Origin: a virus
DNA length: 64,000 bases
Reading direction: 5' to 3' (one strand)
Virus record (IMG/VR): IMGVR_UViG_3300031576_000004
Coordinates: 99,303 to 163,302 of that record
This document shows, piece after piece, positions 1 to 39,167 of the stretch. Below the pieces are notes generated by a model, which was not told the origin of the DNA, made no database searches, and was given only the letters and a program-made list of their open reading frames with translations. Position numbers and translations under genes: made by a program. How positions within the stretch are numbered: the first letter of the stretch is position 1; every line of letters begins with the position of its first letter.

Positions 1-3000
1 TAGCCATGGTATCGCCGTCGAAGTCAGCGTTGAACCCCTTAACAACGAGAGGGTTCAGGCGTATGGCTTTCCCTTCAACAAGCTTTGGCTGGAACGACAT
101 AATGGAGAACTTGTGCAGAGTCGGAGCCCTGTTTGCCATCACCGGTCTATCCCGCATGGCGATCTCAAGAGCCTTTCGTGCAACAGGAGACTTGTCCTCA
201 AGTTCCTTGCGGGCATCAAGCGGCTTGTAGCCCTGCTGGTGTAGTTCTTTAATCGCGAACGGCCTGTAGATCTTCCAGGCCATGTCCTCAGGAATCCCGA
301 TCTCATCCAGCGTCAGCTGTGGCTCAGGGATAATTGTGGACCTGCCTGAAATCTCTTGTCTGCGACTAATGATCCGGTTCTGGAAGAATCCTTCCTTGTT
401 CCTATTGCCTTTAATGGTCTCAATGAGTCCGCGGTATTCTCTATTGGTTAGGGTATCACCTAGACCAGAGACGCCCTTCATCCCCTGGTAGAGATCCTTC
501 CTCAGATTCTTCAACTCAGAATCAGGAATACCTGCGGCCTTTGAGTCCTTGATCGAGTTATTAACTGCGATCAGATCCTTGTAGAGAGCGTTAACGTCAG
601 AGACAACGAGGTTCCCGTCTTCAAGCGGATAGATCGGACGGAACTTCGGCGGGATAACAGGAACGTTCTTTGTTATGTAAACATTCGGATCCTGCTTGTT
701 ATCCTTCAGGGCCTTAAGGTAGCGGATCTTCTTGTTTGCCTTATCGAGCTCGTCACCAGTCAAACCCTTTGCATCACCAACTGCTCCGGCTAGATCCTTT
801 GTGACGTTAACCTTATCAAGCAGCTTTTTAATGGCGACGCCGCCAGTTACAGATCCAGCTTCATGGGTCGCAGTAAATCCATGCTTCTCTGAGTAGTAAA
901 GCTCACCAGAGATTAACGCGTCGTACTGAGACCCAGTCAGGCCTGTAATCGTTTTAATGGCGTTCTCAAACATCGGGTTAGGGAGAGCCTCTGAGAGCTC
1001 GATGTGGGACCACTTAGACCCAGCATGCCCGCCGGTAATATTGGGATCGAACAAGCCATCCTTCTCTGGCTGTAGGTTCTTTCCCTTGATGATCTTTGGC
1101 TCCTTAATTTCGCCAGAGCTCATCGAGCGCACTTCTTTATCGGTCATGGGAACAAGCTGCATGTTGTTCCCGTCTTTCTTGACATCTACGCCGGTGCCCT
1201 TCACCATCGTTATGAACTTCTCGAATGCGAAGGGGACCTTTGGCGCTGGAAGTGACTGGCCTGTCTGAATGGCGCGCCAGAACTCCTCGTTCTTCTCGCT
1301 CTTGTGCGTAGCCATTTCACGAAGGTTATGTTTTGCTCCGTGGGCAAGCATGGCGTAAAGATCTAGGGTTCCGATGGACTGGCCACCTTCTCCGCCACCT
1401 TGTCCAGGCTGCATATCGGCCGTATAGCCGTCACGATCTCTCGCAGAGAACTTCTTCCTTGTCGGATGGTCAAGCTTCAAGATGTACTGCCTGCCAACAA
1501 GAACAGGCGGAAGCTTCCTGTTGAGTTCTGGATCAAATATAGTTTCTTTGTCCGTAAGGCCAGCGTCCTTGAGGTCTTTCTGAACCTTCTCAAGGTAATT
1601 GTCCTCAGAGAAGTTCCTAACTACATATGGCTTGCCAGTCTTATCAGCAATCTTGCCAGCTACGGTCTCGAGAACCTGCCCAACGTTAACGCGGGACGGA
1701 ATCCCGTGAGGGTTCATTAGGATGTCTATCTTCGTTCCGTCGTTAAGAGTTGGGGTCTCAGCGTCAGATAGGATCTTCCCAATAATGCCCTTGTTTCCGT
1801 GCCGACCAACTAGCTTATCCCCTACTTTGGCTGGCTCTTCCGTAGAGATAAGGACCTCGATCTTTCCACCAGTCTTAACAACGTCGGTAACTGTCCCGAC
1901 GTCATCCTCTTCCCATGTGACGGATCGATTCTTATATGGCTTGATAAACGCCTTGTGCAGCTTGGAAAGGAGCACGTCGTCAGTTGTCTTCTCTTCCTTC
2001 CGCATTAGGGCAATAACGATTTCTCCATAAGCGACCTTTTCGCCCTTCTTAATTACTCCATCGGCATCATATTTTCCAGACTGCGCAACGCTGATGTTCT
2101 CTGGGTAATACGCCTTGAATTTGTCCAGGTTTAGAAGGGCATTCTGATCCAGCTGCGCCGACATGCGATGCATGTGCAATGACGTCAGCTTCTTCGCCGC
2201 ACTCTCGGAGACAACAATGGCGTCTTCGAAATTGTAGCCCTTATATGGGACGTATGCCGTTACAAGGTTAGTCCCTAGGGCGATATGCCCGTCCTTCGTG
2301 TAATTAAGTTCATCAAGAAGCTGGCCCTTGGTTACCTTGTCCCCAACCTTAACCTGTGGGGCAGAGTCCAGATAGACCTTAGAGTTAAGTGGGTAGTGAT
2401 CATAAAGCGGATAACGATTTGTCTTCCCTGATTTCCCCTTAACAAAAACAGCGTCCTCGGTGACCTTTGTGACGGTCCCATCCTCATGGGACTTGCTCGT
2501 GTATCCAGCGCCAATCTTGCTCTCATAGGTGCTGCCCTGTTTATCTTCAACCTGAACAAGCGGGCGCTCTCTATGAAGAAGCGGGAGGGCCTGCTCCATC
2601 ATCTTTGAGGCCATCATGGCCCTGTTACCCTGGTCATTCTGCAGAAACGGGACCATATTTGTCGAAACGTCAAACATCGAGCTCGGTGATGGAATTATAT
2701 ATTGAACCTGTTCTGGCTTTACCTTGGCCACCTCGCCCTTATGAATTGCCTTAACTAATGGATATTTCGTGACGAATTTCCCGCCCTTAAGCTCATCCTG
2801 ATATTGATCCCTAAACCCAACAACGACATCAAATACTTGGTTCGGAGACAGTTCTTCTTTAAGTCCAGTCTTGGCATTAAACAGGGCCGTCTTTAGGCTG
2901 TTACCTACCTTTGAAGCATTAAGCGCTAAGTGCAGAGTGGTTCCGATGGCCCCTGATTCTGGCGAATGAAGCGGGTCCAGGAATCCGATTGAAGAAGGGT

Positions 3001-4117
3001 GAACAGCTCGCGCCTCTGCGGTGACGGCATGCTCATTTCCAATGCCGCCCTCGCCCATGATGGTGACCTTGGTTGTCTCTCCTAGCATATGCAGAGGATT
3101 AGTCTGCTCTGGTGTGTTGGATAGCGTCGTAGAGGTAAAGAAATCCTGGATGGGGGCATTGAGGGTATCAATCCCGATGATGTCCCTAATCCTGTCTTTC
3201 TTATCAATTACAAAGCCAATTCTAGCTTTAATCCTATTAGCGCTTTTTGTAATACGCTCAGCCACAAAGTCGTCTGTGGAATGTATTGTCTTGAACTCCA
3301 GTGAGTCCCTGTCATCAGGGGCTCTTTCGTTCCTGGATACGGTCAGGATGCGCGCAGACGTGCTGAGAAGCATATCTGCCGTCACGCTGGCGAACGCCGT
3401 CCCCAGCGTCATTTTTGTCGTCTCTGGGTCGATCTTGGTGTCGTTGAAATAGTTTGATATCGCGGCGATTGAAGTAGCTAGATCTGGGGCTGCCTTATCG
3501 AAAATAGCCCTATAAAGCTTGGCTATTTCCTTGTCGTAATTACCACCTTTGTTCTGTGCGGCTAGATCATTACCCCAAGCGCCAGCGATCTTGGCCTCTG
3601 TAATCCCAAGGGCCATGAGAGCGTGGTATAGCTTTACGTTGGATGTCCCTACATTTAAATAGAATGTTCCGCTTGTAGGATCAAGGATAATCTTGAAATT
3701 CCTGCCCTTAGCAAGGTTGACCTGAGACTCTAACTCTCCATTATCTTTAATTCTTGTGTAAACTCCTGGCTTTAATCTGAGCTGGTTTGTTACCTGATAT
3801 TCATTTCCCTTAACAATGTAAGAGCCCCTAGGCGTTAGCTTCGGAAGATTGGCAACCTTGATCTTCCTGGCGTGATCTATCGTTTTCCCAGTGGCGTTAT
3901 CCTTTAGGGAGAAGTCTCCGTAGACCTGTGCAGCCCACGACTTCCCCCTAAGTTTGGCGTCCTTCTGCCCAGCGAAATCATGCGCGGCCTGGGTATCCTC
4001 AACCCAGACATTATTAAGGACCAGAGTTTGATTGGTGCCCTTATATGGGAAAAGGGCTGCAACTGACTCTAAGAACCTGCGCTTTATGCTCTCGTATTGC
4101 GCCTGGAAATCAAGCAT
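1..4117 (-). CDS. rpoBC: DNA-directed RNA polymerase, fused beta-beta' subunit (3' end outside window)
   Basis: Hand translation from ATG 4117 (RBS GGAGG at 4122-4126). One frame carries beta motifs (GYNFEDAI; GDKLVGRHGNKGII at 1781-1822; LNPHGIPSRVNVGQVLE; GGQSIGTLD) and beta' motifs (GEIKEPK..DGLFDP; NRAPTLH; catalytic NADFDGD at 11-31). The supplied ORF track lists no minus-strand ORF ending in this frame, consistent with no internal stop. Confidence 0.96.
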   Translation of the reverse strand, partial: MLDFQAQYESIKRRFLESVAALFPYKGTNQTLVLNNVWVEDTQAAHDFAGQKDAKLRGKSWAAQVYGDFSLKDNATGKTIDHARKIKVANLPKLTPRGSYIVKGNEYQVTNQLRLKPGVYTRIKDNGELESQVNLAKGRNFKIILDPTSGTFYLNVGTSNVKLYHALMALGITEAKIAGAWGNDLAAQNKGGNYDKEIAKLYRAIFDKAAPDLATSIAAISNYFNDTKIDPETTKMTLGTAFASVTADMLLSTSARILTVSRNERAPDDRDSLEFKTIHSTDDFVAERITKSANRIKARIGFVIDKKDRIRDIIGIDTLNAPIQDFFTSTTLSNTPEQTNPLHMLGETTKVTIMGEGGIGNEHAVTAEARAVHPSSIGFLDPLHSPESGAIGTTLHLALNASKVGNSLKTALFNAKTGLKEELSPNQVFDVVVGFRDQYQDELKGGKFVTKYPLVKAIHKGEVAKVKPEQVQYIIPSPSSMFDVSTNMVPFLQNDQGNRAMMASKMMEQALPLLHRERPLVQVEDKQGSTYESKIGAGYTSKSHEDGTVTKVTEDAVFVKGKSGKTNRYPLYDHYPLNSKVYLDSAPQVKVGDKVTKGQLLDELNYTKDGHIALGTNLVTAYVPYKGYNFEDAIVVSESAAKKLTSLHMHRMSAQLDQNALLNLDKFKAYYPENISVAQSGKYDADGVIKKGEKVAYGEIVIALMRKEEKTTDDVLLSKLHKAFIKPYKNRSVTWEEDDVGTVTDVVKTGGKIEVLISTEEPAKVGDKLVGRHGNKGIIGKILSDAETPTLNDGTKIDILMNPHGIPSRVNVGQVLETVAGKIADKTGKPYVVRNFSEDNYLEKVQKDLKDAGLTDKETIFDPELNRKLPPVLVGRQYILKLDHPTRKKFSARDRDGYTADMQPGQGGGEGGQSIGTLDLYAMLAHGAKHNLREMATHKSEKNEEFWRAIQTGQSLPAPKVPFAFEKFITMVKGTGVDVKKDGNNMQLVPMTDKEVRSMSSGEIKEPKIIKGKNLQPEKDGLFDPNITGGHAGSKWSHIELSEALPNPMFENAIKTITGLTGSQYDALISGELYYSEKHGFTATHEAGSVTGGVAIKKLLDKVNVTKDLAGAVGDAKGLTGDELDKANKKIRYLKALKDNKQDPNVYITKNVPVIPPKFRPIYPLEDGNLVVSDVNALYKDLIAVNNSIKDSKAAGIPDSELKNLRKDLYQGMKGVSGLGDTLTNREYRGLIETIKGNRNKEGFFQNRIISRRQEISGRSTIIPEPQLTLDEIGIPEDMAWKIYRPFAIKELHQQGYKPLDARKELEDKSPVARKALEIAMRDRPVMANRAPTLHKFSIMSFQPKLVEGKAIRLNPLVVKGFNADFDGDTMA

Positions 4118-6130: not shown

Positions 6131-6174
6131 AAAACAAAGTGGCGACCGAGAGCATGATAGCCCTCGATCGCCAC
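6131..6174 (-). terminator. intrinsic terminator of the adhesin operon
   Basis: Minus RNA GUGGCGAUCGAGGGC-UAUCAU-GCUCUCGGUCGCCAC followed by UUUGUUUU. Confidence 0.8.
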
Positions 6175-6199: not shown

Positions 6200-7294
6200 C
6201 TATTCTTCGCGGATATTATGAATGTTGTCTACGTGCATGATCCCGTCCCCAGTACCCTTCATCGTGAACTCCTGCCTGTACCCGAGATCATCCGTGGATT
6301 TGAGAGCAACAACCCTCGTGGCAGTGTAGGTGTTATCAACATACAAATCCTGCACACCGGTTAGAGGATAGTGTTCAACATGGACCTTGTGTTGTCCGGC
6401 TGGCAAGGCAATCGGATCGGGAGTCCAGCCACGGATTCCACGGATGGCCACGACTGGCGGTGCACCAAACAGATTTACCCCAGCCCCACCATTCCAAAGA
6501 TCCGTGATCTCTGTGTTAGACAGAACCCGCTTCCATATGAAGACTTCGTCGATTTTACCTTCGAAAGTAAGCCCGGCTGGACCCACGAGACCATTAAAAT
6601 TGCCGCAGCAGTTGTGGTCGTAATAGTCACCGATGGCGATTTCGCCAAGCTGTTGATAAGATGGGCCATCAAAGCCCTCATCGGAACCAAAGTCCATAAG
6701 AGAATAGACGGTGTGGTTCACATCCCCATCAACAACCAAGTTGCCCTTAATCCCGCTCAGGGGGCCATCCGTGTTGTAATCGTAAGTGACTACGATGTGA
6801 TGATAATTACCGTCCCCAAGGGCGAATGAGCTCACGTCAAAACCGATAAATGTGGCCGGGCCGTTGGTCACCTGCAGCACGAGAGTGCTACCCTGCAAGC
6901 TAATAAGCGCACCACTGCTGCCGGTATTCAAATCGCCGATAGACCACATAACCCCATAACTTTGCGGGGATGGGACTGTTGCTGGATTCACCCAAGCTGA
7001 GATTGACCAAGTCTCCCCGAGATAAGAATTTCCGAACTCAAGATCAGTGCGCTCGATACCGCCCCAATAGAGTCCGTAATGGCCACCCGGAGCTGTGTGG
7101 GTAATGTCACCCGTGACGGCAACAGCACCAGGACCAGTCCCGATCCCAGTGCCGAACTTGCCAACTACTCCATGGGAAGCCCCAACGTTAGTAAGTTCGA
7201 AATCCCCTGAAGTCGGAACCCCTGCAACAGAGGCAAAGTTCCCGGTCAGTTCATTAAACTTCCATCCTGCGATAATATCATCGGTAAGAGCCAT
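6200..7294 (-). CDS. LamG/ConA-like lectin virion protein plus 82-aa C-terminal module
   Basis: WSISAWV, YHHIVVTYD and FEGKIDEVFIWKRVLS LamG motifs; C-terminal 82 aa shared with 7634-9880. Confidence 0.85.
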   Translation of the reverse strand: MALTDDIIAGWKFNELTGNFASVAGVPTSGDFELTNVGASHGVVGKFGTGIGTGPGAVAVTGDITHTAPGGHYGLYWGGIERTDLEFGNSYLGETWSISAWVNPATVPSPQSYGVMWSIGDLNTGSSGALISLQGSTLVLQVTNGPATFIGFDVSSFALGDGNYHHIVVTYDYNTDGPLSGIKGNLVVDGDVNHTVYSLMDFGSDEGFDGPSYQQLGEIAIGDYYDHNCCGNFNGLVGPAGLTFEGKIDEVFIWKRVLSNTEITDLWNGGAGVNLFGAPPVVAIRGIRGWTPDPIALPAGQHKVHVEHYPLTGVQDLYVDNTYTATRVVALKSTDDLGYRQEFTMKGTGDGIMHVDNIHNIREE

Positions 7295-7329
7295 TTATAG
7301 TCCTCCCATGTCTTGTGTATTGATAGGGA

Positions 7330-7608
7330 TTAAGCCGTCTTCTTGAGCCACTTCATGTTCGCGTTAACTGAGCCCGGATGGAACGTGTGGTTACCTTCCG
7401 TGTAAGTCTTCAGCTTGGCTTTAGCCGCGACACCTGTGAGTAGCGTCTTGCTTGCAGCAATCAATGTAGTTATCTGAGTCGCATCGAAATCACCACGGAC
7501 AACTCCAAGAGCGCCAGCAAGATTCTTTCTAACGACGCGATAATTAGGGGCTGTGCTTACATTAACGTCCGGCGTGTCTCCCGAAAATGCAAGTTCTACG
7601 TAGAGCAT
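7330..7608 (-). CDS. small LamG-associated protein (paralog of 11070-11327)
   Basis: GDTPDV.VS.APNY...GDFDA.QI..LIAA.KTLLT shared. Confidence 0.8.
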   Translation of the reverse strand: MLYVELAFSGDTPDVNVSTAPNYRVVRKNLAGALGVVRGDFDATQITTLIAASKTLLTGVAAKAKLKTYTEGNHTFHPGSVNANMKWLKKTA

Positions 7609-7633
7609 TATTTAAACTCCTTTAGTTTTGAGC

Positions 7634-9880
7634 TTACTCTTCTCTAACCATATGGATGTTATCAGTATGCATGACACCGTTACCAGTGCCAGCCCTCGTA
7701 AACTCCTGGCGATAGCTCAGGTCATCCGTGGACTTGAGGACTACGATCCTAGTAGCCACGAACACGTTATCCACGTAGAGATCCTGGATGCCAGTAAGCG
7801 GCTGGTGATCAACATGGACCTTGTGCTGGCCTGTGGAGAGGATGATAGGATCAGGCGACCACCCACGAATACCACGAATAGCCGTTACCACATAGGTGAA
7901 TCCGTTCACCAAAGTACCAAACTGAGTATCCGGATTCGTCACACGCACGTTTACGGGACCAACCCCTTGAGCTGGTGTATCACAGAAAATCGTATTTCCA
8001 TCACCAAAGACGACATTGTCTGCCGGTGTGCTTCCGAAAAGAACTGTGCACCCAGACTGGAAATTACCAGGGTTACCATAGATCGTAACAGAAGTTCCTC
8101 CTGCTGTATCTCCAGTGTTCGGCACAACAAGCTGTGGATTAGGAGCCGGGAATGTATAAGTATAACCGTTAACAAGAGTCCCAGACTGCCCGTCAGAGTT
8201 GGTGACAACTACGTTTACCTGACCAGCCGCATGTAGAGGAGCATCGCAGGTTAGCGACCCCTCATTGAGAACCACCACATTTGTCGCAGGTGTTCCACCA
8301 AAGGAAACAGTTGGGGTCGTAAACGTCTGGAAGAATCCAGTCGGGGAATTGATAATAACCCCGAAGTGGAAGTGAGTACCATTAAGCGTTACAGGAGTAC
8401 CGCCAGAGTTTATACCTGTAGCGGGGAATGCAACCGTGACGGTGGGTGCAGCATGGTAAGCAAACACATTGGACGGAGCATTACTACCCTGACCATCTGG
8501 ATTCTGAACGAACAGGTTTACCAGACCGTCAGAGGTTGTTCCGCCTGGGCTCGGCGGCATAACCCCGGTCAGAGTCGTCGAGCTTTGAAATACTAAGCTC
8601 TGGACGTTAACCCCGTTTACTGTCGCAAAGCAACCAGACTGGAATCCGGTACCAGAAATCGTGACAGCCGTTCCGCCGACAGATGGCCCGTAGGCTGGCG
8701 AAATTGGAGCTGGGGTGTTTACCGTCGGAGCCGCATTATAAGTGTAACCGTTAATAAGCGAACCAAACTGGCTGTCTGGATTTGCTACGTTTATGGTAGC
8801 CAAACCAGATGCGTGAGCTGGCATGTTGCAAGTTATTGTGTTTGCATCCACGACGACCACGTTCGTCGCCTCTGTCCCAGGGGGCGCGAAGAATGGCTCG
8901 TCTGCGCCAATCGCAGGGGAAGACAAGCGAACATCGCCATCCATATCCTCTGTCAAACCAGCAATAGCCACACCAGCACCTATAGCTGGAGATCCTGCCA
9001 TCAAGTGCGGATTAGCAAAGCTAGTCAGCAAAGGATCCGCTGTAAACGAATTAGCTTCCTTACCTACTGCCTGGAAATCTGCAAGTGTCACATAGGCAGT
9101 TGGAGGGTCTACGTTGTGGAAGAGTTTAGCATATTGAAGAACTGGAATATTAAAAGTCAAGTTATTGGAAGCACTAAAGTTATCTGCAAGTCCAGTAGGA
9201 GTATTAGCAGAAAGAACATATATAGCGCGGTGACTAGAGTTAGAAACGATAGTGTGATAGATATTGTCCTTAAACATAGTCTTCCAAGCGTTCTCAACGC
9301 TTGAGCTTAGAACGCCAGCATAGTTCCTGACCGTGTTGCCGAAGGCTTTGAAGTTCAATACCGACACGAACGCAACGTCGCCCTCAGAAACGACCCTAGG
9401 ACGGATATAGCAGTTCCTGACTATGATTGGCTCTGTGTTAAAGTCTACACCTTCCATCGCATAGAACGCATAATGCCCGCCGTTAGTCACTACCTCCATC
9501 TGCTCGAAGATAACGTGTCTTAATAGATTAAACCCGCCCTGGAAGGAAGGAAGGGACGGATTACAGTTCTTAGTATTGAACCACTTAATTGTGACCCTGG
9601 CCGTGGAAGAGCCAATGACTCCTATGCCATTGACATTCTGGCCATCAAGAATAGAACGATTGGCATTGCTTTGCCCTCGAACTGTAAGCCTGAAAGCACC
9701 GGTATTAATTCCACCAAAAAACATAACTTCAACATTAGAGCCTGCCTGAGAAAACGTCTCACCACCGTTACAAACGATTTCCCAGTCCTCAGTGAATGGG
9801 GTGTGGTTCAGAACCAAATCAGCGATAGCTGCCTGAATGGTTGTGAACGGCTTATCTGAACCTACCAGCGACATTCCCAT
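7634..9880 (-). CDS. beta-helix (pectin-lyase-like) + half IPT + three IPT/TIG domains + 82-aa C-terminal module
   Basis: TTIQAAI start, beta-helix ending SPAIGAG..DGD.R...IGADE; IPT repeats P.SG...GGT.VTI.G..F...VTNPDGQ. Confidence 0.88.
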   Translation of the reverse strand: MGMSLVGSDKPFTTIQAAIADLVLNHTPFTEDWEIVCNGGETFSQAGSNVEVMFFGGINTGAFRLTVRGQSNANRSILDGQNVNGIGVIGSSTARVTIKWFNTKNCNPSLPSFQGGFNLLRHVIFEQMEVVTNGGHYAFYAMEGVDFNTEPIIVRNCYIRPRVVSEGDVAFVSVLNFKAFGNTVRNYAGVLSSSVENAWKTMFKDNIYHTIVSNSSHRAIYVLSANTPTGLADNFSASNNLTFNIPVLQYAKLFHNVDPPTAYVTLADFQAVGKEANSFTADPLLTSFANPHLMAGSPAIGAGVAIAGLTEDMDGDVRLSSPAIGADEPFFAPPGTEATNVVVVDANTITCNMPAHASGLATINVANPDSQFGSLINGYTYNAAPTVNTPAPISPAYGPSVGGTAVTISGTGFQSGCFATVNGVNVQSLVFQSSTTLTGVMPPSPGGTTSDGLVNLFVQNPDGQGSNAPSNVFAYHAAPTVTVAFPATGINSGGTPVTLNGTHFHFGVIINSPTGFFQTFTTPTVSFGGTPATNVVVLNEGSLTCDAPLHAAGQVNVVVTNSDGQSGTLVNGYTYTFPAPNPQLVVPNTGDTAGGTSVTIYGNPGNFQSGCTVLFGSTPADNVVFGDGNTIFCDTPAQGVGPVNVRVTNPDTQFGTLVNGFTYVVTAIRGIRGWSPDPIILSTGQHKVHVDHQPLTGIQDLYVDNVFVATRIVVLKSTDDLSYRQEFTRAGTGNGVMHTDNIHMVREE

Positions 9881-9915
9881 TTTCTATTCCTCCGTATTTC
9901 TTACGTTAAATTTAA

Positions 9916-10200
9916 TTAAGGAGCAGGAAGTGGCGCTGGCGGCGGTTGTGGCCGATCCGCAACATTTACGGACAACAGTGCCCCAGTCGTGGCCGCTGAA
10001 TCAATCGCCTTGATAAGCCCCATAAGATCATTAGCATCCTGTGACCCGAGAGTAATGTCTGGACGGTTAATCAAATCAAACAATACCTTCTCATTAACAG
10101 AAAACGATTCCTGAGCCCTCATGGCCACTGTCTTTCTGCAGTTAGCATGGGAGTTAGGAAACCAAGGCCCGGCAATCTTCGCAACCAATAGATAAGCCAT
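9916..10200 (-). CDS. small hypothetical protein preceding the beta-helix gene
   Basis: RBS GGAGAG; in operon. Confidence 0.7.
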   Translation of the reverse strand: MAYLLVAKIAGPWFPNSHANCRKTVAMRAQESFSVNEKVLFDLINRPDITLGSQDANDLMGLIKAIDSAATTGALLSVNVADRPQPPPAPLPAP

Positions 10201-10240
10201 TTACTTCTCTCCTTGTATTATCGTATTATCGTGCTGTCTT

Positions 10241-11053
10241 TTAGGCTACGAAAACCCTAGCCCCAGCAGCGAAGTTAGCTCCAGCAATTGTTACAGGAGT
10301 CCCACCAGCTACAGGGCCGGAAACCGGGACGATAGTGGCCAACGAAGGAGCTGGAGCAAGAGCCCACAGATTCGTCCCGGCCCCACCGTTCCACAGTCCT
10401 GCTCGTTCCGTTGAAGTAATAACTCTATCCCATGTTATCATCTCATCAATAACCCCATTGAAGAATGCCGAAGCCGCGTAGCTTGATCTGCCTACACGGA
10501 ATGGGGTCGTAAGAACAATCTCATCGATAAGCGATGTACTTACTCCGCTTCCAGCATCTTCCACATTGTCTACATACATTCTAAAACCGCCAGCAACACC
10601 AGCGATGAACGTGATAACTCCAAGGTGGAAGACATTGTCATTGACGGTGGCAGTCGATCCATGGATTAATACTTGATTCGCGCCTTTCTGGAAAACTGTC
10701 CGCAGGACGCCAGTATAAACAGACGCCTGGAACATGCTATCAACCGGAACGCCGAGAGGGTTCCTCTTGGAGAATATCATATCCTCAAAGAATGGATTGC
10801 TTGGTGATGCCGTTTTGAACCAAAAAGAAATAGAGAAGTTCTTCCCAATAGGGATATTCAGATTCGGCGAGCTAGCATTATCTATTGCGGCAAAGCTAGT
10901 AGAGCCATTGAATAAAGCCCCATACCCAACTTTCCCTGCCGCCTGATAGCCAACAGAAGTTGGGACAAGCGCGTGTGCTGCTACCTTTGATATAAAGTTG
11001 CCGGAAGCCTCGTCGAGCTTCCAGGCATCTATGATGTTGTCTGTAATCGGCAT
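10241..11053 (-). CDS. LamG-like lectin ending in the first half of an IPT/TIG domain
   Basis: FSISFWFK and FNGVIDEM LamG motifs; ends PVSGPVAGGTPVTIAGANFAAGARVFVA-stop. Confidence 0.87.
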   Translation of the reverse strand: MPITDNIIDAWKLDEASGNFISKVAAHALVPTSVGYQAAGKVGYGALFNGSTSFAAIDNASSPNLNIPIGKNFSISFWFKTASPSNPFFEDMIFSKRNPLGVPVDSMFQASVYTGVLRTVFQKGANQVLIHGSTATVNDNVFHLGVITFIAGVAGGFRMYVDNVEDAGSGVSTSLIDEIVLTTPFRVGRSSYAASAFFNGVIDEMITWDRVITSTERAGLWNGGAGTNLWALAPAPSLATIVPVSGPVAGGTPVTIAGANFAAGARVFVA

Positions 11054-11069
11054 TTTATGCTCCCGTTTA

Positions 11070-11327
11070 TTAGATGCCAGTGATCATAGTCGGGTAGGCG
11101 GCAACCCAAGCATCACCCCAAGCCCTGGCTTGCGCGGTAGCTTGCGCTGCGGTCAGCAGCGTCTTCGGGGCTGCGATTAACGCATTGATCTGAGCAGCGT
11201 CAAAGTCACCGGACACGACCTTCTCTGTCCCGTCAACTTTTGCCGCCCCAACGGTATAATTTGGAGCCGCCGATACATCGACATCCGGCGTATCCCCAGT
11301 AAAGTTTAGCACTGTGAAGATTGACAT
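11070..11327 (-). CDS. small LamG-associated protein
   Basis: Paralog of 7330-7608 and, more distantly, 41894-42148. Confidence 0.8.
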   Translation of the reverse strand: MSIFTVLNFTGDTPDVDVSAAPNYTVGAAKVDGTEKVVSGDFDAAQINALIAAPKTLLTAAQATAQARAWGDAWVAAYPTMITGI

Positions 11328-11338
11328 TGAATTTTCTC

Positions 11339-11962
11339 CTAGGAAGGTGACCCGTCAGAGATGACCAATGCAGCTCCGAATCCGGCAGGAGCGGAGCCGA
11401 CGGAGACCACCAACTCCACACCACTCGGAGCAGCGGGAATGTTGATATTGGTCCCGAACTCCACCCTCTTGATAACGGATTGCTTGATAGCCGTGCACTG
11501 ATGCTCCCAGGAAACCTGAGAGCCAAGGGCAGCGTTGAGAGTAGCCTTGAGAGACTTGGCCCCAATAGCCGTGGTGCCGCCGTCAGAGGCGACGACCAGC
11601 GTCCCGCCCGCAGTGTCCATCGCATTGGCAAACCCGGCCTGGAGAGGAGTCTGACCGACGGTTGCAGTCTCCATATCCACCAGACCAGTTGTCACGTTGT
11701 GCGTTTCGATTGGGTACTGAGGGAACGTCTCGTGACGGGCAACGCCACCGTTGCCATTAATGGCAGCCTGAGCATTCGCAATGCCCTGAGATGTCGTGTT
11801 TGCTGGAAGGTTTACTTCAACAGCGACCAGCTTTCCGTTGACGTCACGGATAATAGTGGAAGCGTTGTTTGGGTGCGCAGCATTAACAGCATTTTGGATC
11901 GCGGTCAGCGTTAAATCGCTTGCCTGAGCCCCAGGATCACAGATTATATTAATCTTCGGCAT
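11339..11962 (-). CDS. anchor domain plus C-terminally truncated beta-sandwich (paralog of 12139-13038)
   Basis: AAHPN..IRDVNGK...VNLP N-domain shared; stops about 90 aa earlier than the paralog. Confidence 0.85.
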   Translation of the reverse strand: MPKINIICDPGAQASDLTLTAIQNAVNAAHPNNASTIIRDVNGKLVAVEVNLPANTTSQGIANAQAAINGNGGVARHETFPQYPIETHNVTTGLVDMETATVGQTPLQAGFANAMDTAGGTLVVASDGGTTAIGAKSLKATLNAALGSQVSWEHQCTAIKQSVIKRVEFGTNINIPAAPSGVELVVSVGSAPAGFGAALVISDGSPS

Positions 11963-11982
11963 TGTCTACTCCCCTTTCTTTT

Positions 11983-12017
11983 AAAGAAAATGTGGGCGAT
12001 GTCAATATCGCCCACAT
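11983..12017 (-). terminator. intrinsic terminator
   Basis: ATGTGGGCGAT-6nt-ATCGCCCACAT hairpin followed on the minus strand by TTTCTTT. Confidence 0.7.
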
Positions 12018-12138
12018 ACTTAACACACTATTTATGTAATGTTGTGTAGTTATTGTTTGTCTTTGCATTTTATAATACGTTTATTACAAGTTCCGGCCGA
12101 GCCATGAACGCGTCTCCTAAATTCTGGCTAACTGCAGC

Positions 12139-13038
12139 CTAAGCAATACGATCCATGATCAGGTTGTCGATGTAGCTCCTCCCAGCCCCAGAAGTTCCGC
12201 TTGGGTAACGCGTGCGAGAGACATACTCCCAGATCGTTCTTGGGCTCAGTGCTCCCATGACAGTTTCCTTCAGAACGCCATCAACCCAGAGAGCGTATGT
12301 TCCAGTCATGAGATCACAATCCATATACGCTGTGTGATGCGCGCCAGCAGACATAGTATATAACGCGGAAGGCGTCCCATCCGGCGTAGTTAGATACACT
12401 CCACGGCCTACTGGAGCAGTCGGCGCGAAACCAACAGGGTAATCATGGAATGTAAGACGCATAGCACCATCCCTATCTCCAACTTCAAGTTCATTTCCGC
12501 TCTCGCTTCCAAGAGCTGGCCAGAAAACACTGTAGCCAATCCTCAGGCGCTTGAATGGCGAAGGTGTCGGAACAAAGGTGCACATCCAGCCATTGCCATC
12601 ATCCGGAGCAGAGACACAGAACTGTTCCAAGCACTTCGTTCCGGTAGCCGGATGATCTAAAGAAACCGTGTTAGAAATCGAAGCTGGGCCACCCTGAGGG
12701 CTAACTACTAGTCCCTGAGTAAGGCCCCAATCGTAAACCTCTTGAGCTAAAGGCGCGCCTTCGAAACCAGTATCTGCGAATAGGGGTACCGGCATGAACG
12801 AGGCCGATGCAGTAGCCACACCAGGATTGGCATTAATCGCAGCGGCAGCAACATCCAGATTCCCCTGTGATACGCCGAACGGAAGATTGACCTTCACCTC
12901 CACAACCTTGCCATTCACGTCACGAATGACTTCGGCGGCAAAGTTAGGATGCGCTGCGGCGGCCGCGGCCCGCACCTCATTGAGTGTCTTCTCGCTAGAC
13001 TGAGAATACGGATCAATCGGGACGTTAATAGATGGCAT
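12139..13038 (-). CDS. anchor domain plus complete ConA/CBM-like beta-sandwich
   Basis: GFE...YALWVDG...YIDNL pattern typical of lectin-like sandwiches. Confidence 0.82.
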   Translation of the reverse strand: MPSINVPIDPYSQSSEKTLNEVRAAAAAAHPNFAAEVIRDVNGKVVEVKVNLPFGVSQGNLDVAAAAINANPGVATASASFMPVPLFADTGFEGAPLAQEVYDWGLTQGLVVSPQGGPASISNTVSLDHPATGTKCLEQFCVSAPDDGNGWMCTFVPTPSPFKRLRIGYSVFWPALGSESGNELEVGDRDGAMRLTFHDYPVGFAPTAPVGRGVYLTTPDGTPSALYTMSAGAHHTAYMDCDLMTGTYALWVDGVLKETVMGALSPRTIWEYVSRTRYPSGTSGAGRSYIDNLIMDRIA

Positions 13039-13448: not shown

Positions 13449-14033
13449 TTAAACAAAGTTTATTTGAGCCGTGTCAACAACAGCAAGGCCAGATGGCGTC
13501 GGGGCGCTAAGTGTTAATGTCACCATCTGCACGACCGAGTCTTTGACTTGAACCGTTGCCTCGCCATTGGTGAATGTTACTGGCTGAGAAGTCACAATCA
13601 CTGCGCTTCCGCTAACAGAGACAGTTACCATGCTTGTATTGTTAAATGGATTTGTCACTCCAAATCCATTCGCAACCCTAACAACGACCGGCGTCAGCGT
13701 GGACCCGTCTGCTGTCCCAGAGAACGGGGAGCCATTCTCGAATAGGACTTGCGCGTCAGTTGATACAATGTAATTCAGAAGCTCGTTAAACTCGGCCTGT
13801 GTTACAGGAGAGTCTGAGTCTTGAGAGAAGCTTATGATCTGGAGTTTGCCAGCTGTAACGAGACGTTGAATTTCTTCGCTGGATGCATATGTATCCGGAA
13901 TTGTTCCGGTGTCTCCCGCAGTCCCAAATGGATTTAATTTTCTCTGAACATCCGGAGTTCCAAGCGGAGCCCCAGCTGCACGTCGTTCGATAAGAACGAT
14001 CTTTCCTGCTGTTAAGTTTTTTACTGTTGCCAT
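13449..14033 (-). CDS. virion decoration protein, shared N-terminal anchor + Ig-like domain
   Basis: VKNLT...SEEIQRLVTAGKL anchor; ADG..TV.V...TF.NG.A Ig-like segment. Confidence 0.75.
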   Translation of the reverse strand: MATVKNLTAGKIVLIERRAAGAPLGTPDVQRKLNPFGTAGDTGTIPDTYASSEEIQRLVTAGKLQIISFSQDSDSPVTQAEFNELLNYIVSTDAQVLFENGSPFSGTADGSTLTPVVVRVANGFGVTNPFNNTSMVTVSVSGSAVIVTSQPVTFTNGEATVQVKDSVVQMVTLTLSAPTPSGLAVVDTAQINFV

Positions 14034-14042
14034 TTTTACTCC

Positions 14043-14537
14043 TTAGGCGATAACGGTATAGCTAAACACTTCAGCGCCAGCCGCCATGCCTGGGGTTGAC
14101 ACAGCAAAGCTAACCCCAGGAACTATGCCGCCAATGCCGGCGAACGCTCCAGGAGGAGTCGAAAGAAGAATGGCCGCAGAAGCGTTCTGCGCAAACAGGA
14201 AGATCTTTGATCCTGCAGCGATGTTAGCCGCTGGGACAACAGACACGGGACCTGGTGTAGCCATAAAAGAACCGCGGATAACAGCCCTGTTAAATTCGTC
14301 CTGGCCGAAATCGCTGTCAGCGGCTGTGCTGTAAGAAAGGATTGCTAGCTTGCCTGCGGTTACAAGATTGGTGATCTCTGTTGAGCGGGCGAAGGAGTCC
14401 GGAATCGTTCCAGTATCTCCTGGCGCTCCAAAAGCAGTAAGCCGAACTTCAACATCAGGAGTTCCAACTGGAGATCCTAGCGGCCTACGCTCGATTAAAG
14501 CCAATGTGCCAGTGGTCAGGTTCTGTACGCTTGCCAT
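14043..14537 (-). CDS. virion decoration protein (paralog of 13449-14033)
   Basis: Shared ~85-aa N-terminus. Confidence 0.75.
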   Translation of the reverse strand: MASVQNLTTGTLALIERRPLGSPVGTPDVEVRLTAFGAPGDTGTIPDSFARSTEITNLVTAGKLAILSYSTAADSDFGQDEFNRAVIRGSFMATPGPVSVVPAANIAAGSKIFLFAQNASAAILLSTPPGAFAGIGGIVPGVSFAVSTPGMAAGAEVFSYTVIA

Positions 14538-14617: not shown

Positions 14618-14822
14618 CACCATTCTCCCTGCTAGGAACATCGTCTTCTATGAAAGCCGTGTCTACATAACGAATAATGACGTTAGCCTCGCCGCGGTTG
14701 GTGTGGAATACCTCTTCTTTAAGTATTTTAATAGATGGGTCGTTTACGAGCTTTTCGTACTCGGCTCTGCCAAGGGATGAATCCAGGGACAGCTTTATGA
14801 TCGACTTTTTCCCAATCATCAT
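14604..14822 (-). CDS. hypothetical protein
   Basis: ATGA-coupled to the glycosyltransferase. Confidence 0.65.
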   Translation of the reverse strand: MMIGKKSIIKLSLDSSLGRAEYEKLVNDPSIKILKEEVFHTNRGEANVIIRYVDTAFIEDDVPSRENGVASN

Positions 14823-17803
14823 GTTGTCGTCTCCAGGAATTCCTTTTGGCCAGAGGTCTCAGCATTATAGATGAGAGTGGGCACCATCGTTAGGGCTACC
14901 TTCTCGTTCTTCCACCTGGAGACCATTTCAAAATCATGCGCGTAGCCAACTTCAGTGCGATTCTTCCACCATCCATATTTCTCTATTAGACTCTTCTTAT
15001 GAAGCACCTCTGATGTATCCACCTGGAACTTCTCTGGGGCAGTACAGAACCTAGGCTTGCCATCTACAAGCATGGATGATAATGCGTAGCTTGCTCCCTC
15101 AAATTTCATCTTATCGTGTAGGCATGATAAATGGTCCGACATAACCGTGTTATCGTCATCTACATACGCTATTAAGTTGGCTGACGACAACATGATCCCG
15201 TAATTCCTAGGAATAGCCCCGCCTGCTCCATGGTTATTGGGCAGGTTAAATATGCGGGCCTTTTCGCAGGCATAATCCTGTAATTCTGGACAATTGTCCC
15301 CAACAATAATTATCTCTTTGGAGAAATAGTCCTGCTCCAAGACGGACGCCACGGCCTTCCCTAGAAGCAGGTTCTTCACCCTCTTGTGAGTCGGGATAAT
15401 CACAGAGATCTTCGGGCCTAAATAGAACTCCTTGATCCGCGGATCTGATGGATGAGCATAATTAAGGATCGGATATTCCTTCAGGGTCTCCTCGAAGAGC
15501 TCGCTGTCCGTATCGAATTCCCCACCCAGCTCTCGGTATTGCGCTATGGATTTAATGCGCCTTGTTGCGTCGTGAAACCCCAGGTGGTGAGTTATTAAGG
15601 AATTCTTAAGTACTACGACTCTATTCGATCCGATAAGCTTCTCATGCACAGGGAAGACCCACCTGATATCAGGCTTGTTCCTGTGCATGAACGGCTTCGC
15701 AATATGCTCCTTGCCGTTTGTGTCCACAAGCTTCGCCAGGAAGATGTCGTATTCATCCTGATCAACGAGCTCCCAAATATTCTCCAGCGTGGACTTGTCG
15801 AGGCGCTCGTCCGGATCAAACATAATGATCCAATCACAGCTGAGCGCAAACTTGCCAATGGCATGATTTCTGGCTCTTGAAAAAGCTGTAAACTCATAGT
15901 CCTCTATGATGGCAACGCCATTATTTTTAGCCCATTCGACGGTGCCGTCTGTGGAGCCAGAATCCAATATCGATATATCATTAGTAATCCCTTTGAACTG
16001 TTCAACAAATCCTGGAAGCGCCTCGATCTCATCCTTTGTGATCGCAATGACCTTAATCTTTGGGTGCTTCCTGTGGAATGGAGCCCTGTTCTCCTCTAGG
16101 ATTTTGTTAATATCGAGATCGTTGGCTTTGAAGGTGGCGTGTCCCTCATGGTGGATCCACGCCCGCTCAACTATCTTGCAGATATACCCAGCCTTGCGAA
16201 CTCGAGCGCAGTAATCTGTGTCTTCAAAGTTAACGAACCTCGTGTCGAATCCTCCGAGCTTCTTGAACATGTCTGTCCTGGTCATCATGCAGACACCCAC
16301 TACAGAATCCACGACAAGGCTTCCATGCCTGAAAGCGTCTTCCTTCTGAACGTATCCCTGAGGGGGACAAGCATAGTTTGAGTACGGGCCAACAACCGCT
16401 GTTGCTTGGGAATCATTTAATCCAATAAGAAGCCTGTCTAGAACTCCAGGCTCTACGACTGTGTCGCTGTTAAGGAAACAGATATATGGCGACGTCACTT
16501 CCATCGCCGCCCTATTGCACCCAGCGGCATAGCCGATATTCGCCTCTAGGTTGATGACCTTGGTTGCCGGCCCTTCAACCGGAACTTTGGATCCGTTGTT
16601 AAGAAGGATAACTGGCAGCGTCGGGTAGTGCTTCTTAACTGATTCAAGGCACCGCTTCGTGAGCTCCGGGGTATTCCAATCAAGGACAACAATGGAGATA
16701 CATCCTTCCCGATGTCTCCTGTTATTGAATTCCTCAAACTCATGGCGGTAATTGTTGCGGCCAATCTCAAGGTTATCCTGAATCGCCTTATTCTTTGTAA
16801 ACGTTGTGTTCTGGAAGGCGTCTAGGAAGCGATAGAGGTATAGACATTTGTCCAGGTGGAAACACTTGGACCTAAGGAAAAAGCGAGCATAGAGGTCCCA
16901 ATCGTCTGCGATCGCTAATTGCGGATTGTACCCACCAAGCTCTCTGAATGTCTTAGCTCGGTAAGCTCTGATGTGGTTCGGCCCAACCGTCAGAAACCAA
17001 CCGAACTGCTTGTAGTACTCTGGGCCAAATCTGTCATAGATATTCGGATTAACAGCCTCCATATACTTCTTCCCGTTGTACTCAAACTCCCTATACCTTC
17101 CATCCTTAACCCACTCTGGGAAGGTGTGCGGGGAACCGTCCTGGAAGAAGCTGGCGCAGTTCGTATAAACCATCCCAGCTTCTGGATGCGATTTAAATGC
17201 CGCGGCGACATCATAGACCGCATCACGAGTAAGCATATCGTCATGATCCAACTCGATCAGGTAAACGCCTGTGCATAGGCGTGTGGCCATGTCCTTTAGT
17301 GCGCCAACCTTGCCTATGTGGTTAACCTTGATCGGCCTGACCCTGTGGTCAATTTTAGCGAACTCTAAGAGGCGCTCGTATGTCCCATCGGTAGATCCAT
17401 CGTCAACGACAACCCATTCCCAGTTCGGATACGTTTGATCTCTGAGAGAGTAGTAGGTGTCCAGGATCATGCCGCCAGTGTTAAATGTCGGCGTATAGAC
17501 CGAAACAAGCGGCTGAACATCATCTTCTTTTGGCGCTGTCCAAATATTGTTTATGTAAACGTTCTGGATCGATTGCGCCACAGCTTCTGGAGTGGCTTTA
17601 GGGTCGCTTACATTCATCCACTTTTTCCGCAGATCGTAGCCCGCTGCGTTGAGCTCACCAGGGAAGAATCCAGTGGTAACAATAACATCTGGCCTGAACC
17701 TGGCTATCGCAGGAAGCAGATCCTTAATGTCTGTTACTGTGCAGGATTCGGCAGGGACATCCCACTGCCGCAAGACAAACAGGACTCTTATTCCACTTAT
17801 CAT
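14819..17803 (-). CDS. multidomain glycosyltransferase with four GT2 (GT-A) domains
   Basis: Four GT-A units: VSVYTPTFN..DDGSTD..ELDHDD; ISIVVL..FLNSD; VIAITKDE..DSGSTD..FDPDE; ISVIIPT..YVDDD. Confidence 0.92.
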   Translation of the reverse strand: MISGIRVLFVLRQWDVPAESCTVTDIKDLLPAIARFRPDVIVTTGFFPGELNAAGYDLRKKWMNVSDPKATPEAVAQSIQNVYINNIWTAPKEDDVQPLVSVYTPTFNTGGMILDTYYSLRDQTYPNWEWVVVDDGSTDGTYERLLEFAKIDHRVRPIKVNHIGKVGALKDMATRLCTGVYLIELDHDDMLTRDAVYDVAAAFKSHPEAGMVYTNCASFFQDGSPHTFPEWVKDGRYREFEYNGKKYMEAVNPNIYDRFGPEYYKQFGWFLTVGPNHIRAYRAKTFRELGGYNPQLAIADDWDLYARFFLRSKCFHLDKCLYLYRFLDAFQNTTFTKNKAIQDNLEIGRNNYRHEFEEFNNRRHREGCISIVVLDWNTPELTKRCLESVKKHYPTLPVILLNNGSKVPVEGPATKVINLEANIGYAAGCNRAAMEVTSPYICFLNSDTVVEPGVLDRLLIGLNDSQATAVVGPYSNYACPPQGYVQKEDAFRHGSLVVDSVVGVCMMTRTDMFKKLGGFDTRFVNFEDTDYCARVRKAGYICKIVERAWIHHEGHATFKANDLDINKILEENRAPFHRKHPKIKVIAITKDEIEALPGFVEQFKGITNDISILDSGSTDGTVEWAKNNGVAIIEDYEFTAFSRARNHAIGKFALSCDWIIMFDPDERLDKSTLENIWELVDQDEYDIFLAKLVDTNGKEHIAKPFMHRNKPDIRWVFPVHEKLIGSNRVVVLKNSLITHHLGFHDATRRIKSIAQYRELGGEFDTDSELFEETLKEYPILNYAHPSDPRIKEFYLGPKISVIIPTHKRVKNLLLGKAVASVLEQDYFSKEIIIVGDNCPELQDYACEKARIFNLPNNHGAGGAIPRNYGIMLSSANLIAYVDDDNTVMSDHLSCLHDKMKFEGASYALSSMLVDGKPRFCTAPEKFQVDTSEVLHKKSLIEKYGWWKNRTEVGYAHDFEMVSRWKNEKVALTMVPTLIYNAETSGQKEFLETTT

Positions 17804-35566: not shown

Positions 35567-36355
35567 ATGGGATCCATAAGATTCCAAGTTAGACTATTGG
35601 CCGAAGACGGAGCGGTGCTAAAGGAATTTGAGCGCGTCTTTGCTCCAAAGGCAATCGACAAAAGGTTCAGTGTAGAAGGCAATAGCCCGATGGACCTTTT
35701 CGAAAAGGTTAAAGAAGCCCTGGCCGCCGCAAGAGAAAAGCAGAACGGACTTAATCTTGCGTGCGCTGTTGCAGATAGGCTTGCAGCATCAGCAATTGAG
35801 GGCGAGCGCTACAAGATCTGGTGTGCCCTTGGAAAGAACCCAGATGAATATGCTGCGTGGACAAAGGAAAACCCAATCCCCATCATCGATGAGGCTTCTC
35901 TTGAAAAGACAGATCTTCCTGTTCTCCAGAGGGTCGGCCCTCCAATCGCTGGGGTTGAACTCGTAGACCCACCAAAGAAGCGCAGAGGACGTCCGGCAAA
36001 GATCAAGACAGAAGAGACGCCTTCAGAAGATCCGGTTCCTGCAGAGGCGACACCACAGGCAGAACCAATCAAGAAGCGCAGAGGTAGACCGCCTAAGAAT
36101 CCAGTTCCTCAGACTGAGCCGGCAGCGGAGCCGGTTAAGAAGCGCCGTGGACGCCCACCGAAGAATCCAGTTCCTGAGGCCGCTGCCGAAGAGCCGGTTA
36201 AGAAGAAGAGGGGTCGCCCACGCAAAAACCCGCTTCCAGAAGGTCAGGCAGAGCCCGCAAAGCGTGGCCCTGGAAGACCGAGGAAGAACCCACTTCCTGC
36301 CACGGAAGAGCCTGTAAAGCGCAAAAGGGGAAGGCCTCGCAAGAACCCAGTATAG
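35567..36355 (+). CDS. multi-AT-hook (HMGA-like) DNA-binding protein
   Basis: Six GRP[APR]K AT-hooks in ~20-aa tandem units. Confidence 0.85.
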   Translation: MGSIRFQVRLLAEDGAVLKEFERVFAPKAIDKRFSVEGNSPMDLFEKVKEALAAAREKQNGLNLACAVADRLAASAIEGERYKIWCALGKNPDEYAAWTKENPIPIIDEASLEKTDLPVLQRVGPPIAGVELVDPPKKRRGRPAKIKTEETPSEDPVPAEATPQAEPIKKRRGRPPKNPVPQTEPAAEPVKKRRGRPPKNPVPEAAAEEPVKKKRGRPRKNPLPEGQAEPAKRGPGRPRKNPLPATEEPVKRKRGRPRKNPV

Positions 36356-36361
36356 GCCTTA

Positions 36362-36378
36362 TTTTCCGGTATAAGAGT
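36362..36378 (+). promoter_or_regulatory. class B promoter motif TTTT-CC-GGTATAAGAGT
   Basis: Third copy of the motif. Confidence 0.68.
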
Positions 36379-36454
36379 ATAGAGGCAAGTGAATAATCTT
36401 ACCTCTCCGGTTTGCCGACCGGCTCTTAACCCTTTTTCAAAAGGAGATGCCACA

Positions 36455-37021
36455 ATGAAAAACTACATGATCGCATTGCTTGCCGCCCTCGCTCTGGTTG
36501 GCTGCGGGACGAAGGCTCAGCCTGTGCCGCCTTCTCCCCTCGAGCAGTTCAACTCTGATCTGATCAAGCGAAACGACGAGTTGGTAAGGCAAATCACCAA
36601 GGCTCAAACGGAAGAGCGTGAAGGGAAAATCACTCCCGCCGTTTACGCTTCCACGGTCGTCCGGCTTGCCGAGACGATGAAGGAAACGAACGCTTCCAAC
36701 GCGATCGCGAAGACCGCTCTGGAGCATGCCGATGAGGATGCTATCCAGAAAGGACTGAAGCCAAGGCCTGCGCCTGAGATGACTCAGGAGCAAAAGGAAC
36801 TGATGCTCGCAAAGCTTCAGCTCAAAATCGCCGAGGTCAAGGCAAGGGAAGCTCAGGCCGAGCGTCCCACGATCATCGAAAGGGTGATCGAAAAGGTTCT
36901 CGTTGTTCCTGCCCCGAAGACCGAAGTCAGGGTCCTCACCGCTGATGCCGGAAGGCCGCAGTGGGAGAGGGTCACCTTGGACGAGTGCAACTGGACTGTG
37001 TATCACGAGCGCACGAAGTGA
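36455..37021 (+). CDS. lipoprotein, coiled-coil
   Basis: MKNYMIALLAALALVGC signal with lipobox; RBS AAGGAG. Confidence 0.8.
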   Translation: MKNYMIALLAALALVGCGTKAQPVPPSPLEQFNSDLIKRNDELVRQITKAQTEEREGKITPAVYASTVVRLAETMKETNASNAIAKTALEHADEDAIQKGLKPRPAPEMTQEQKELMLAKLQLKIAEVKAREAQAERPTIIERVIEKVLVVPAPKTEVRVLTADAGRPQWERVTLDECNWTVYHERTK

Positions 37022-37042
37022 GATCGATTCTTCGGTTTCACA

Positions 37043-37080
37043 GGGAGGATGGGGCGGCAACCCCATCCTCCCGTTCTTTT
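37043..37080 (+). terminator. intrinsic terminator
   Basis: GGGAGGATGGGG-CGGCAA-CCCCATCCTCCC-GTTCTTTT. Confidence 0.85.
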
Positions 37081-37089
37081 AGGATACAA

Positions 37090-39110: not shown

Positions 39111-39120
39111 CTACATCTGT

Positions 39121-39165: not shown

Positions 39166-39167
39166 AG

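Follow-up and report, generated by a model that had tools for sequence, protein, structure and literature searches.

We analyzed a gene cluster in a 64,000-nucleotide (nt) stretch of viral DNA, referred to below as the window, which covers bases 99303-163302 of the IMG/VR record IMGVR_UViG_3300031576_000004. The record stems from an uncultured virus, is 163 kb long and is estimated to be 88% complete. The cluster, encoded on the minus strand, contains the gene of a 207-amino acid (aa) protein, P0003, which we call the socket, that of a longer paralog, P0004, and those of two larger cargo proteins, P0001 and P0002, the C-terminal segments of which we call plugs, as they correspond to the part of P0004 that is missing from the socket. 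All four open reading frames (ORFs) named in a preliminary description of this stretch are present on the minus strand at the coordinates of Table 1, where the other features of the cluster are also listed. The two strongest terminator-like hairpins of the region directly follow P0004 and P0001. The genes for the socket, S1, LamG270, the 94-aa protein, P0002, S2 and P0001 form one unit, which these two hairpins bracket. Within the unit, the TAG stop codon of the socket (11339-11341) overlaps the AGGAG ribosome-binding site located 8 nt before the S1 start (11327), which suggests that the socket and S1 are translationally coupled. No PHROGs or Pfam family was found for the socket, P0004, S1, S2, the 94-aa protein or the 124-aa protein, and no Pfam family was found for the N-terminal region of P0002, which the preliminary description had read as a beta-helix. 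S1, S2 and the 94-aa protein may help in assembly or belong to the inserted cassettes.

Table 1 Features of the gene cluster and its borders, in the direction of transcription. Positions refer to the window.
Feature	Position	Strand	Description
164-aa protein	14043-14537	-	Paralog of the 194-aa protein; N-terminal region common to both
194-aa protein	13449-14033	-	Weak, sub-threshold match to Big_1, a bacterial Ig-like domain (23.8 bits; cut-off 34.9)
124-aa protein	Between the 194-aa gene and P0004 in high-to-low order	-	
P0004	12139..13038	-	299 aa; unsplit reference paralog; ferredoxin-like N-domain, aa 1-75 (nt 12814-13038), and predicted complete ConA-like jellyroll, aa 76-299
Terminator-like hairpin	11990..12017	-	11-bp stem and T run; follows P0004 and precedes the socket; upstream boundary of the transcription unit with socket and cargos
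P0003 (socket)	11339..11962	-	207 aa; N-domain, aa 1-75, and first two thirds of the jellyroll, aa 76-207
S1	11070..11327	-	85 aa; paralog of S2 (48% identity); directly ahead of LamG cargo gene
LamG270	10241..11053	-	Laminin_G_3, then N-terminal half of IPT/TIG (Pfam positions 1-35 of 84; nt ~10244-10348), then stop
94-aa small protein	9916..10200	-	Ahead of the beta-helix/IPT cargo gene
P0002	7634..9880	-	748 aa; N-terminal region, half IPT, three full IPT domains, plug 2
Half IPT in P0002	nt 8738-8878 (aa 335-381)	-	C-terminal half, Pfam positions 38-84
Plug 2 in P0002	nt 7637-7888 (aa 665-748)	-	
S2	7330..7608	-	92 aa; paralog of S1; ahead of the second LamG cargo gene
P0001	6200..7294	-	364 aa; complete Laminin_G_3 and plug 1 (aa 281-364; nt 6203-6454)
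Strong terminator-like hairpin	6139..6174	-	15-bp stem and T run; immediately follows P0001; downstream boundary of the unit

P0004 serves as the reference for all comparisons below. It has an N-terminal domain of about 75 residues in common with P0003, which was modelled as a ferredoxin-like beta-alpha-beta-beta-alpha-beta fold (AlphaFold2 (AF2) predicted local distance difference test (pLDDT) of 80-91, with an Atlas match to HMA-like proteins). The genome of the phage contains exactly two genes with this N-domain, i.e., the anchor-bearing ones, and three tail-like segments. For the remainder of P0004, the ESM Atlas model superposes over aa 78-299 on LamG-like, polysaccharide-lyase-like and DUF1080-like models of 215-242 aa, with template modelling (TM) scores, taken by row, of 0.66-0.72. 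The AF2 model, the confidence of which is moderate (pLDDT 63), matches GH131 glucanases, legume lectins and a laminarinase in the PDB (Foldseek E 4e-7 to 7e-6), as well as phage LamG-type and virion proteins in BFVD. According to these models, P0004 aa 78-299 is one concanavalin A (ConA)-like jellyroll. As a Pfam search at E values up to 10 yielded no family for P0004 aa 76-299, for the middle parts of the sockets or for the tails, the ConA-like domain is related at the level of the fold and does not belong to a curated family such as Laminin_G_3.

From its first residue onward, P0003 aligns with P0004 aa 1-224 (82/239 identical, 34%; E 9e-19), and the alignment terminates at DGSPS in the former and DGTPS in the latter. 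The socket protein ends with ...ISDGSPS, followed by the TAG codon. The part that follows the N-domain is significant against P0004 on its own for three socket orthologs (E 2e-4, 4e-5 and 1e-4). The suggestion made earlier, namely that P0003 is a truncated P0004 paralog that stops two thirds of the way through the sandwich, is thus borne out. Besides P0003, two orthologs of the socket were found, P0024 (208 aa) and P0025 (200 aa), which are 36-48% identical to P0003, and all three stop at the same residue, ...ISDG(S/A)PS. The partial jellyroll is the better conserved part of these proteins, with 40/132 positions invariant among the sockets, as compared to 11/75 in the N-domain. An identical P0003 sequence is present on three contigs, and P0025 was found on contigs from two runs. 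Because diverged orthologs end alike and because the identical P0003 occurs on three contigs, the stop of the socket is neither an assembly error nor a recent pseudogene. That the stop at 11339 is an artefact of assembly or sequencing could be argued from the record being a single metagenomic contig; this explanation, the probability of which we consider negligible, is refuted by the orthologs, which come from other contigs and runs, so that the stop is seen to be kept in three diverged phages.

P0001 and P0002 agree in 63 of their last 84 aa (75%; E 1e-42). The shared tail had been recognized in the preliminary description, where it was given as 82 aa with 62/82 identities; the tail itself stands, while its length and identity are corrected here. 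The DNA of the two tails becomes similar suddenly, with the codons for AIRGIRGW, and remains so up to the stop codon. Over this stretch, DNA identity is 68%, the proportion of synonymous differences (pS) is 0.79, i.e., saturated, and that of non-synonymous differences (pN) is 0.18. As pS is saturated while pN is this low, the substitution proportions indicate that the tails are held by purifying selection on the protein, in agreement with what had been claimed for them. Over its whole length, each tail aligns colinearly with the last third of P0004 (aa ~205-299; 28% identity), with BLASTP E values of 2e-4 and 4e-6 and an hhalign E of 9e-4 over 78 columns. The earlier assignment of the missing third of the sandwich to the tails of the LamG and beta-helix/IPT proteins therefore holds. 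Between the tails and the socket, no credible alignment was obtained (hhalign E 0.54, one column), nor was one of significance found between the tails and the LamG domains of their own operon. It should be noted that in MAFFT joint alignments of sockets and tails under P0004, the tails were misplaced; the apparent alignment of tails and sockets was rejected by hhalign. The possibility that the tail is a diverged IPT/Ig domain was also rejected, as no Pfam hit and no fold match was obtained. Socket and plug are hence complementary with respect to P0004, of which the former covers aa 1-224 and the latter aa 212-297, with an overlap of about one strand: the end of the socket and the start of the plug both align to the P0004 strand of aa 211-224, so that one strand is duplicated.

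Similar tails on different proteins might also be the variable regions of a diversity-generating retroelement (DGR), in which case their likeness would result from template-driven mutagenesis. DGR targets typically vary a lectin-fold C-terminus, and a reverse transcriptase gene does lie within the window, on the plus strand (37292-38677). A blastn search of positions 36000-40000 against the rest of the window, however, revealed no pair of template and variable repeats and only chance matches of 14-16 nt, none of them in 6200-13038, and the differences between the tails are spread over third codon positions, with no adenine-specific pattern. Moreover, the predicted tail fold is ConA-like and not that of a C-type lectin. 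We thus regard this explanation as exceedingly improbable.

An exhaustive tail-profile search of 1.84 billion representative proteins yielded one true relative, P0005 (739 aa, E 2.8e-23), an ortholog of P0002 that is 50% identical to it and in which the tail is kept at 54% identity. P0005 is encoded on a 3.2-kb contig from the same sample (L004), on which it is followed, after a gap of 27 nt, by the socket ortholog P0024 and then by a homolog of the 124-aa protein (L004:111-2984). Truncated socket and tail therefore also co-occur in a related phage, as adjacent genes, in the one relative with visible context. The two plugs of the window phage are 75% identical to each other and 53-57% identical to the P0005 plug, and the sockets of the window phage and the L004 phage are 36-39% identical. 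Such likeness of the plugs within one phage is expected if plugs track their own socket; late duplication gives the same pattern. Weaker matches to the tail profile (E 2e-14 and above) were found in giant multidomain proteins, of which 3 of the 8 scanned also carry a Sialidase-like CBM. From the motif HxVxV...LYVDG...IDN, we tentatively read these matches as C-terminal halves of LamG-type domains. Further relatives were sought in viral_contigs, with P0004 and with the alignments of sockets and of tails, in two metagenome_contigs scans and by blastn against the phage collection; none came up, and P0025 was the only relative found in word-index searches. Four IMG/VR contigs (L012-L015) carry relatives of the RNA polymerase of this phage at 39-53% identity; every gene of the cluster, socket and plug alike, is absent from them, which says nothing about the split.

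The gene order in the relative bears on the question of whether the split is real. While the plug-bearing gene is located upstream of the socket in L004, it is found 1.5-5 kb downstream in the window. Were a full-length protein produced by joining at the level of DNA, RNA or translation, the split would be only apparent; candidate routes are site-specific recombination or deletion, a phase-variable cassette switch, splicing, ribosome bypass and stop read-through. In favour of joining, all of the pieces lie on one strand and in one transcription unit, and DNA rearrangements that switch tail-fibre genes are known from phages, e.g., those by Gin in Mu and Cin in P1. Nonetheless, we consider joining to be very unlikely. 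The reversed order in L004, with a tail-bearing gene upstream of the socket, rules out a simple downstream join and argues against read-through, bypass or a fixed deletion that connects socket and tail. No repeats connect the 3' end of the socket with the starts of the tails, no inverted repeats flank the region and the unit has no recombinase gene. Read-through of the TAG would add only 10 codons before a TAA, the distances of 3.4 and 4.9 kb between socket and tails are far past known bypassing, and the stop is, as described above, conserved in three phages.

To obtain a structural view of the pair, the socket P0003 was co-folded with plug 1, i.e., the tail of the LamG protein P0001, using a 3-row alignment for each. 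The resulting interaction prediction score from aligned errors (ipSAE) was 0.78 (0.77, 0.81 and 0.78 in the individual runs), as compared to 0.00 for the best of three controls, so that the prediction for the 207-aa protein with this tail is a confident one. The ipSAE mark is reached by 58 of 80 solved complexes and by 2 of 110 mismatched pairs, which should be considered a rough guide, since our own 3-row alignments were used here. The runs agreed in at least 85% of contacts. Confidence rose in both chains, with the plug reaching a pLDDT of 75-78 with the socket, as compared to 54 with an unrelated chain, and the socket reaching 70-72 with the plug, as compared to 58. The predicted interface is very large (328-382 residue pairs). 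The contacts with the lowest error connect socket residues 139-141 with plug residues 75-77, and socket residues 147-152 and 182-186 with plug residues 64-68, which would fit an arrangement in the predicted complex in which a strand of the plug is flanked by two strands of the socket. By alignment, the contact segments correspond to predicted P0004 strands 136-143, 149-155, 270-277 and 284-290. A comparison of conservation between interface and non-interface positions was uninformative, as the predicted interface spans most of both pieces. The co-fold thus indicates that the modelled pieces resemble complementary halves of a ConA-like domain, and is not to be read as binding in the cell.

When modelled alone by AF2, the tail forms an open five-strand beta structure, with pLDDT values of 67, 60, 57, 40 and 36 for the five models. 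The best Foldseek match of the isolated tail model had an E of only 0.31, over 58 columns of a ConA-like glucanase, and VIA comparison against 48,161 representative chains returned none at Z >= 5, the best Z being 4.2. An isolated tail that does not match a solved autonomous domain fits an incomplete fold, though the tail may still associate with itself. These results have also to be considered in light of a different explanation, in which the genes are the products of nested insertion or duplication and no reassembly takes place. The socket would then act through its N-domain and a self-sufficient partial sheet, and the tail would be an autonomous module, for example a half-sandwich that dimerizes the cargos by tail-tail pairing, or one that binds another virion protein. 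The five-strand structure itself, predicted with moderate confidence at best, would suit such a module, as two tails, each with one sheet, could stack on one another. The presence of two plugs for one socket and the strand duplicated between socket end and plug start can be counted for it as well, and LamG270, described below, demonstrates that truncated fragments can persist in the operon. On the other hand, the five tail models disagree, the isolated model matches no autonomous domain, the partial jellyroll is the most conserved part of the socket and ends at one and the same residue in three orthologs, and the co-fold differs sharply from its controls, with confidence gained in both chains. 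On balance, we consider this explanation to be unlikely.

In our view, the best reading of the locus, which we hold to be fairly probable, is trans-complementation, whereby a ConA-like jellyroll would be encoded as two polypeptides that reassemble non-covalently. The reading draws on the homology of the pieces, on the conserved truncation, on the arrangement of the genes, on the confident co-fold prediction and on the purifying selection seen in the tails. The socket would present the ferredoxin-like N-domain together with the first ~7 strands of the sandwich, and the 84-residue plug, fused to the C-terminus of the LamG and beta-helix/IPT cargos, would give the last ~6 strands. Plug strands would pair with socket strands, rebuilding the fold that P0004 has in one chain, and the cargo would thereby become tethered to whatever the N-domain shared with P0004 binds. 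In the cell, the two chains would bind each other, the N-domain may dock on the virion and the cargos may compete for or share the socket. The preliminary description had proposed just such a socket completed in trans. In silico, the core of that proposal is upheld by the truncation, the co-occurrence, the selection, the co-fold and the lack of an autonomous match for the tail.

Several points weigh against trans-complementation and should be considered when referring to it. The whole family is small, with three sockets, three plugs and one intact paralog. The co-occurrence of socket and plug rests on one relative, L004; the contig of a second relative, L005, stops short of the C-terminus of the gene that follows the socket. 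The alignments used for the co-fold were only 3 rows deep, and the halves of a known fold tend to pass such predictions owing to the memory that the model has of the ConA fold. Given the duplicated strand, the fit between socket and plug is not a clean cut. Finally, the moderate pLDDT of the isolated tail (best 67) implies that the tail may fold autonomously or associate with itself.

The same operon contains a second split of this kind. The C-terminus of LamG270 matches positions 1-35 of the 84 positions of the IPT/TIG model (PF01833) with 27.1 bits (cut-off 20.9), and P0002 aa 335-381 match positions 38-84 with 25.9 bits, directly before three full IPT domains. P0005 has the same half domain (model positions 38-78, 33.2 bits). 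This C-terminal half is 73% identical between P0002 and P0005, which is the level of the full IPT domains, whereas the N-terminal 330 residues are only 33% identical. At the cut site, the two halves again overlap (...RVFVA with ...PFFAP). As one operon contains two exact splits within domains, the sequences suggest that the underlying process has recurred. A likely history would start with the duplication of a P0004-like gene, after which cassettes would have entered one copy in frame, in the middle of its beta-sandwich domain, each bringing a cargo gene behind a small S-type gene. The LamG-IPT gene acquired in this way would have been interrupted likewise, and fold complementation would have kept the interrupted pieces attached. 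The overlap of one strand at each of the cuts is in line with a duplication and subsequent complementary losses. Taken further, the two splits would describe a hierarchical, self-wiring appendage, in which an anchored socket takes either plug-tagged adhesin and the larger adhesin takes a third lectin through the split IPT domain; we put this forward tentatively, as a possibility on the doubtful side. If such a hierarchy exists, mid-domain insertion of a small S gene together with a new cargo would be a route to new adhesins with the old attachment kept, and the plug, with its 84 aa, would represent a portable protein-ligation tag of natural origin that greatly exceeds a donor strand in size.

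If the halves of the jellyroll assemble, unrelated adhesin-like proteins could be mounted on one site by means of a tag that comprises a third of a lectin fold. This would explain the branched, exchangeable host-recognition or decoration structures of large uncultured phages, and also how modules can be added by insertion without breaking the attachment. The unsplit P0004 offers a built-in control in the same genome, and a natural socket-plug pair of such size could serve as a protein-coupling tool. For annotation, the locus is a warning that phage structural genes listed as truncated may be functional halves rather than pseudogenes.

Upstream of P0004, the paralogous genes for the 194-aa and 164-aa proteins probably encode more surface or decoration proteins. 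The surface-protein cluster is adjoined by the gene of a 994-aa protein with several GT2 glycosyltransferase domains (14819-17803, minus strand). Further along, a 772-aa protein (21008-23326, minus strand) has long collagen-like repeats and strong internal DNA repeats and matches many phage tail-fibre families. At the start of the window, a 2119-aa ORF (1-4117, minus strand), which runs past the window, contains both Rpb2-type (beta) and Rpb1-type (beta') RNA polymerase domains. The phage codes for a fused beta-beta' RNA polymerase, a collagen-like fibre and a four-domain glycosyltransferase, and for Ig-like proteins as well.

The arrangement proposed here can be compared to several known systems. 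In chaperone-usher pili (Fim, Pap), an incomplete beta-sandwich is completed in trans by another subunit, resulting in very stable non-covalent joints. There, pilins lack one strand of an Ig-like fold, the donor is N-terminal, and a dedicated chaperone and usher take part, whereas in the present case the fold is predicted to be ConA-like, about six strands would be donated from a C-terminal 84-aa segment and the operon proteins include no recognizable member of a chaperone or usher family. The system thus works, as read here, like donor-strand complementation, yet does not belong to it, as the defining features of the chaperone-usher systems differ from those found. Two-chain legume lectins (pea, lentil) and circularly permuted ConA-like proteins illustrate that this fold is stable as two polypeptides and that it tolerates new chain ends in its C-terminal third; pea lectin 2bqp and the permuted glucanase 1ajk were among our fold matches. 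The chains of such lectins, however, are produced by proteolysis or transpeptidation of one folded precursor, not from separate genes, and carry no cargo. In phages, N-terminal adaptors of branching tailspikes (CBA120 TSP1-4, G7C gp66/gp63.1) place several receptor-binding proteins on one attachment point. Those modules are complete, folded N-terminal domains that bind surface to surface, unlike the split C-terminal plug described here.

The statement in the preliminary description that no such completion had been described for phage appendages was too strong, as two solved cases exist. In the crystal structure of the Tuc2009 baseplate tripod, a 25-residue C-terminal hairpin of BppU completes a sheet of BppA domain 2, and the composite resembles a titin-like Ig domain (PMC4742702). 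The piece donated in Tuc2009 is thus a hairpin in an Ig-like fold, whereas here it would consist of 84 residues, or approximately six strands and a third of a ConA-like jellyroll. In Tuc2009, the donor is on the scaffold, while here it is on the cargo and is carried by two unrelated cargos. In addition, the genome examined here encodes an unsplit paralog, and no sequence relationship with the Tuc2009 proteins was seen. The second case is the nozzle of the Pseudomonas podophage A1002, resolved by cryo-EM, in which one ancestral protein is encoded by two genes, gp39 and gp42, and C-terminal parts on one chain fill truncated domains of the other by added beta-strands (PMC13730344). The authors of that study propose that an acquired module became complementary to a truncated ancestral gene (PMC13730344). 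The A1002 nozzle is a core tail component at fixed stoichiometry, and not a docking site shared by different adhesin-like cargos, and its folds are a platform and a beta-propeller instead of a ConA-like jellyroll. The principle thus has solved precedents in phages, from which the locus described here differs in its ConA-like fold, in a donor that amounts to a third of a domain, in its two cargos, in its unsplit paralog and in the nested second split. If the reading of trans-complementation is correct, fold complementation would be extended from the single strand or hairpin of pili and Tuc2009 to a six-strand piece of a jellyroll.

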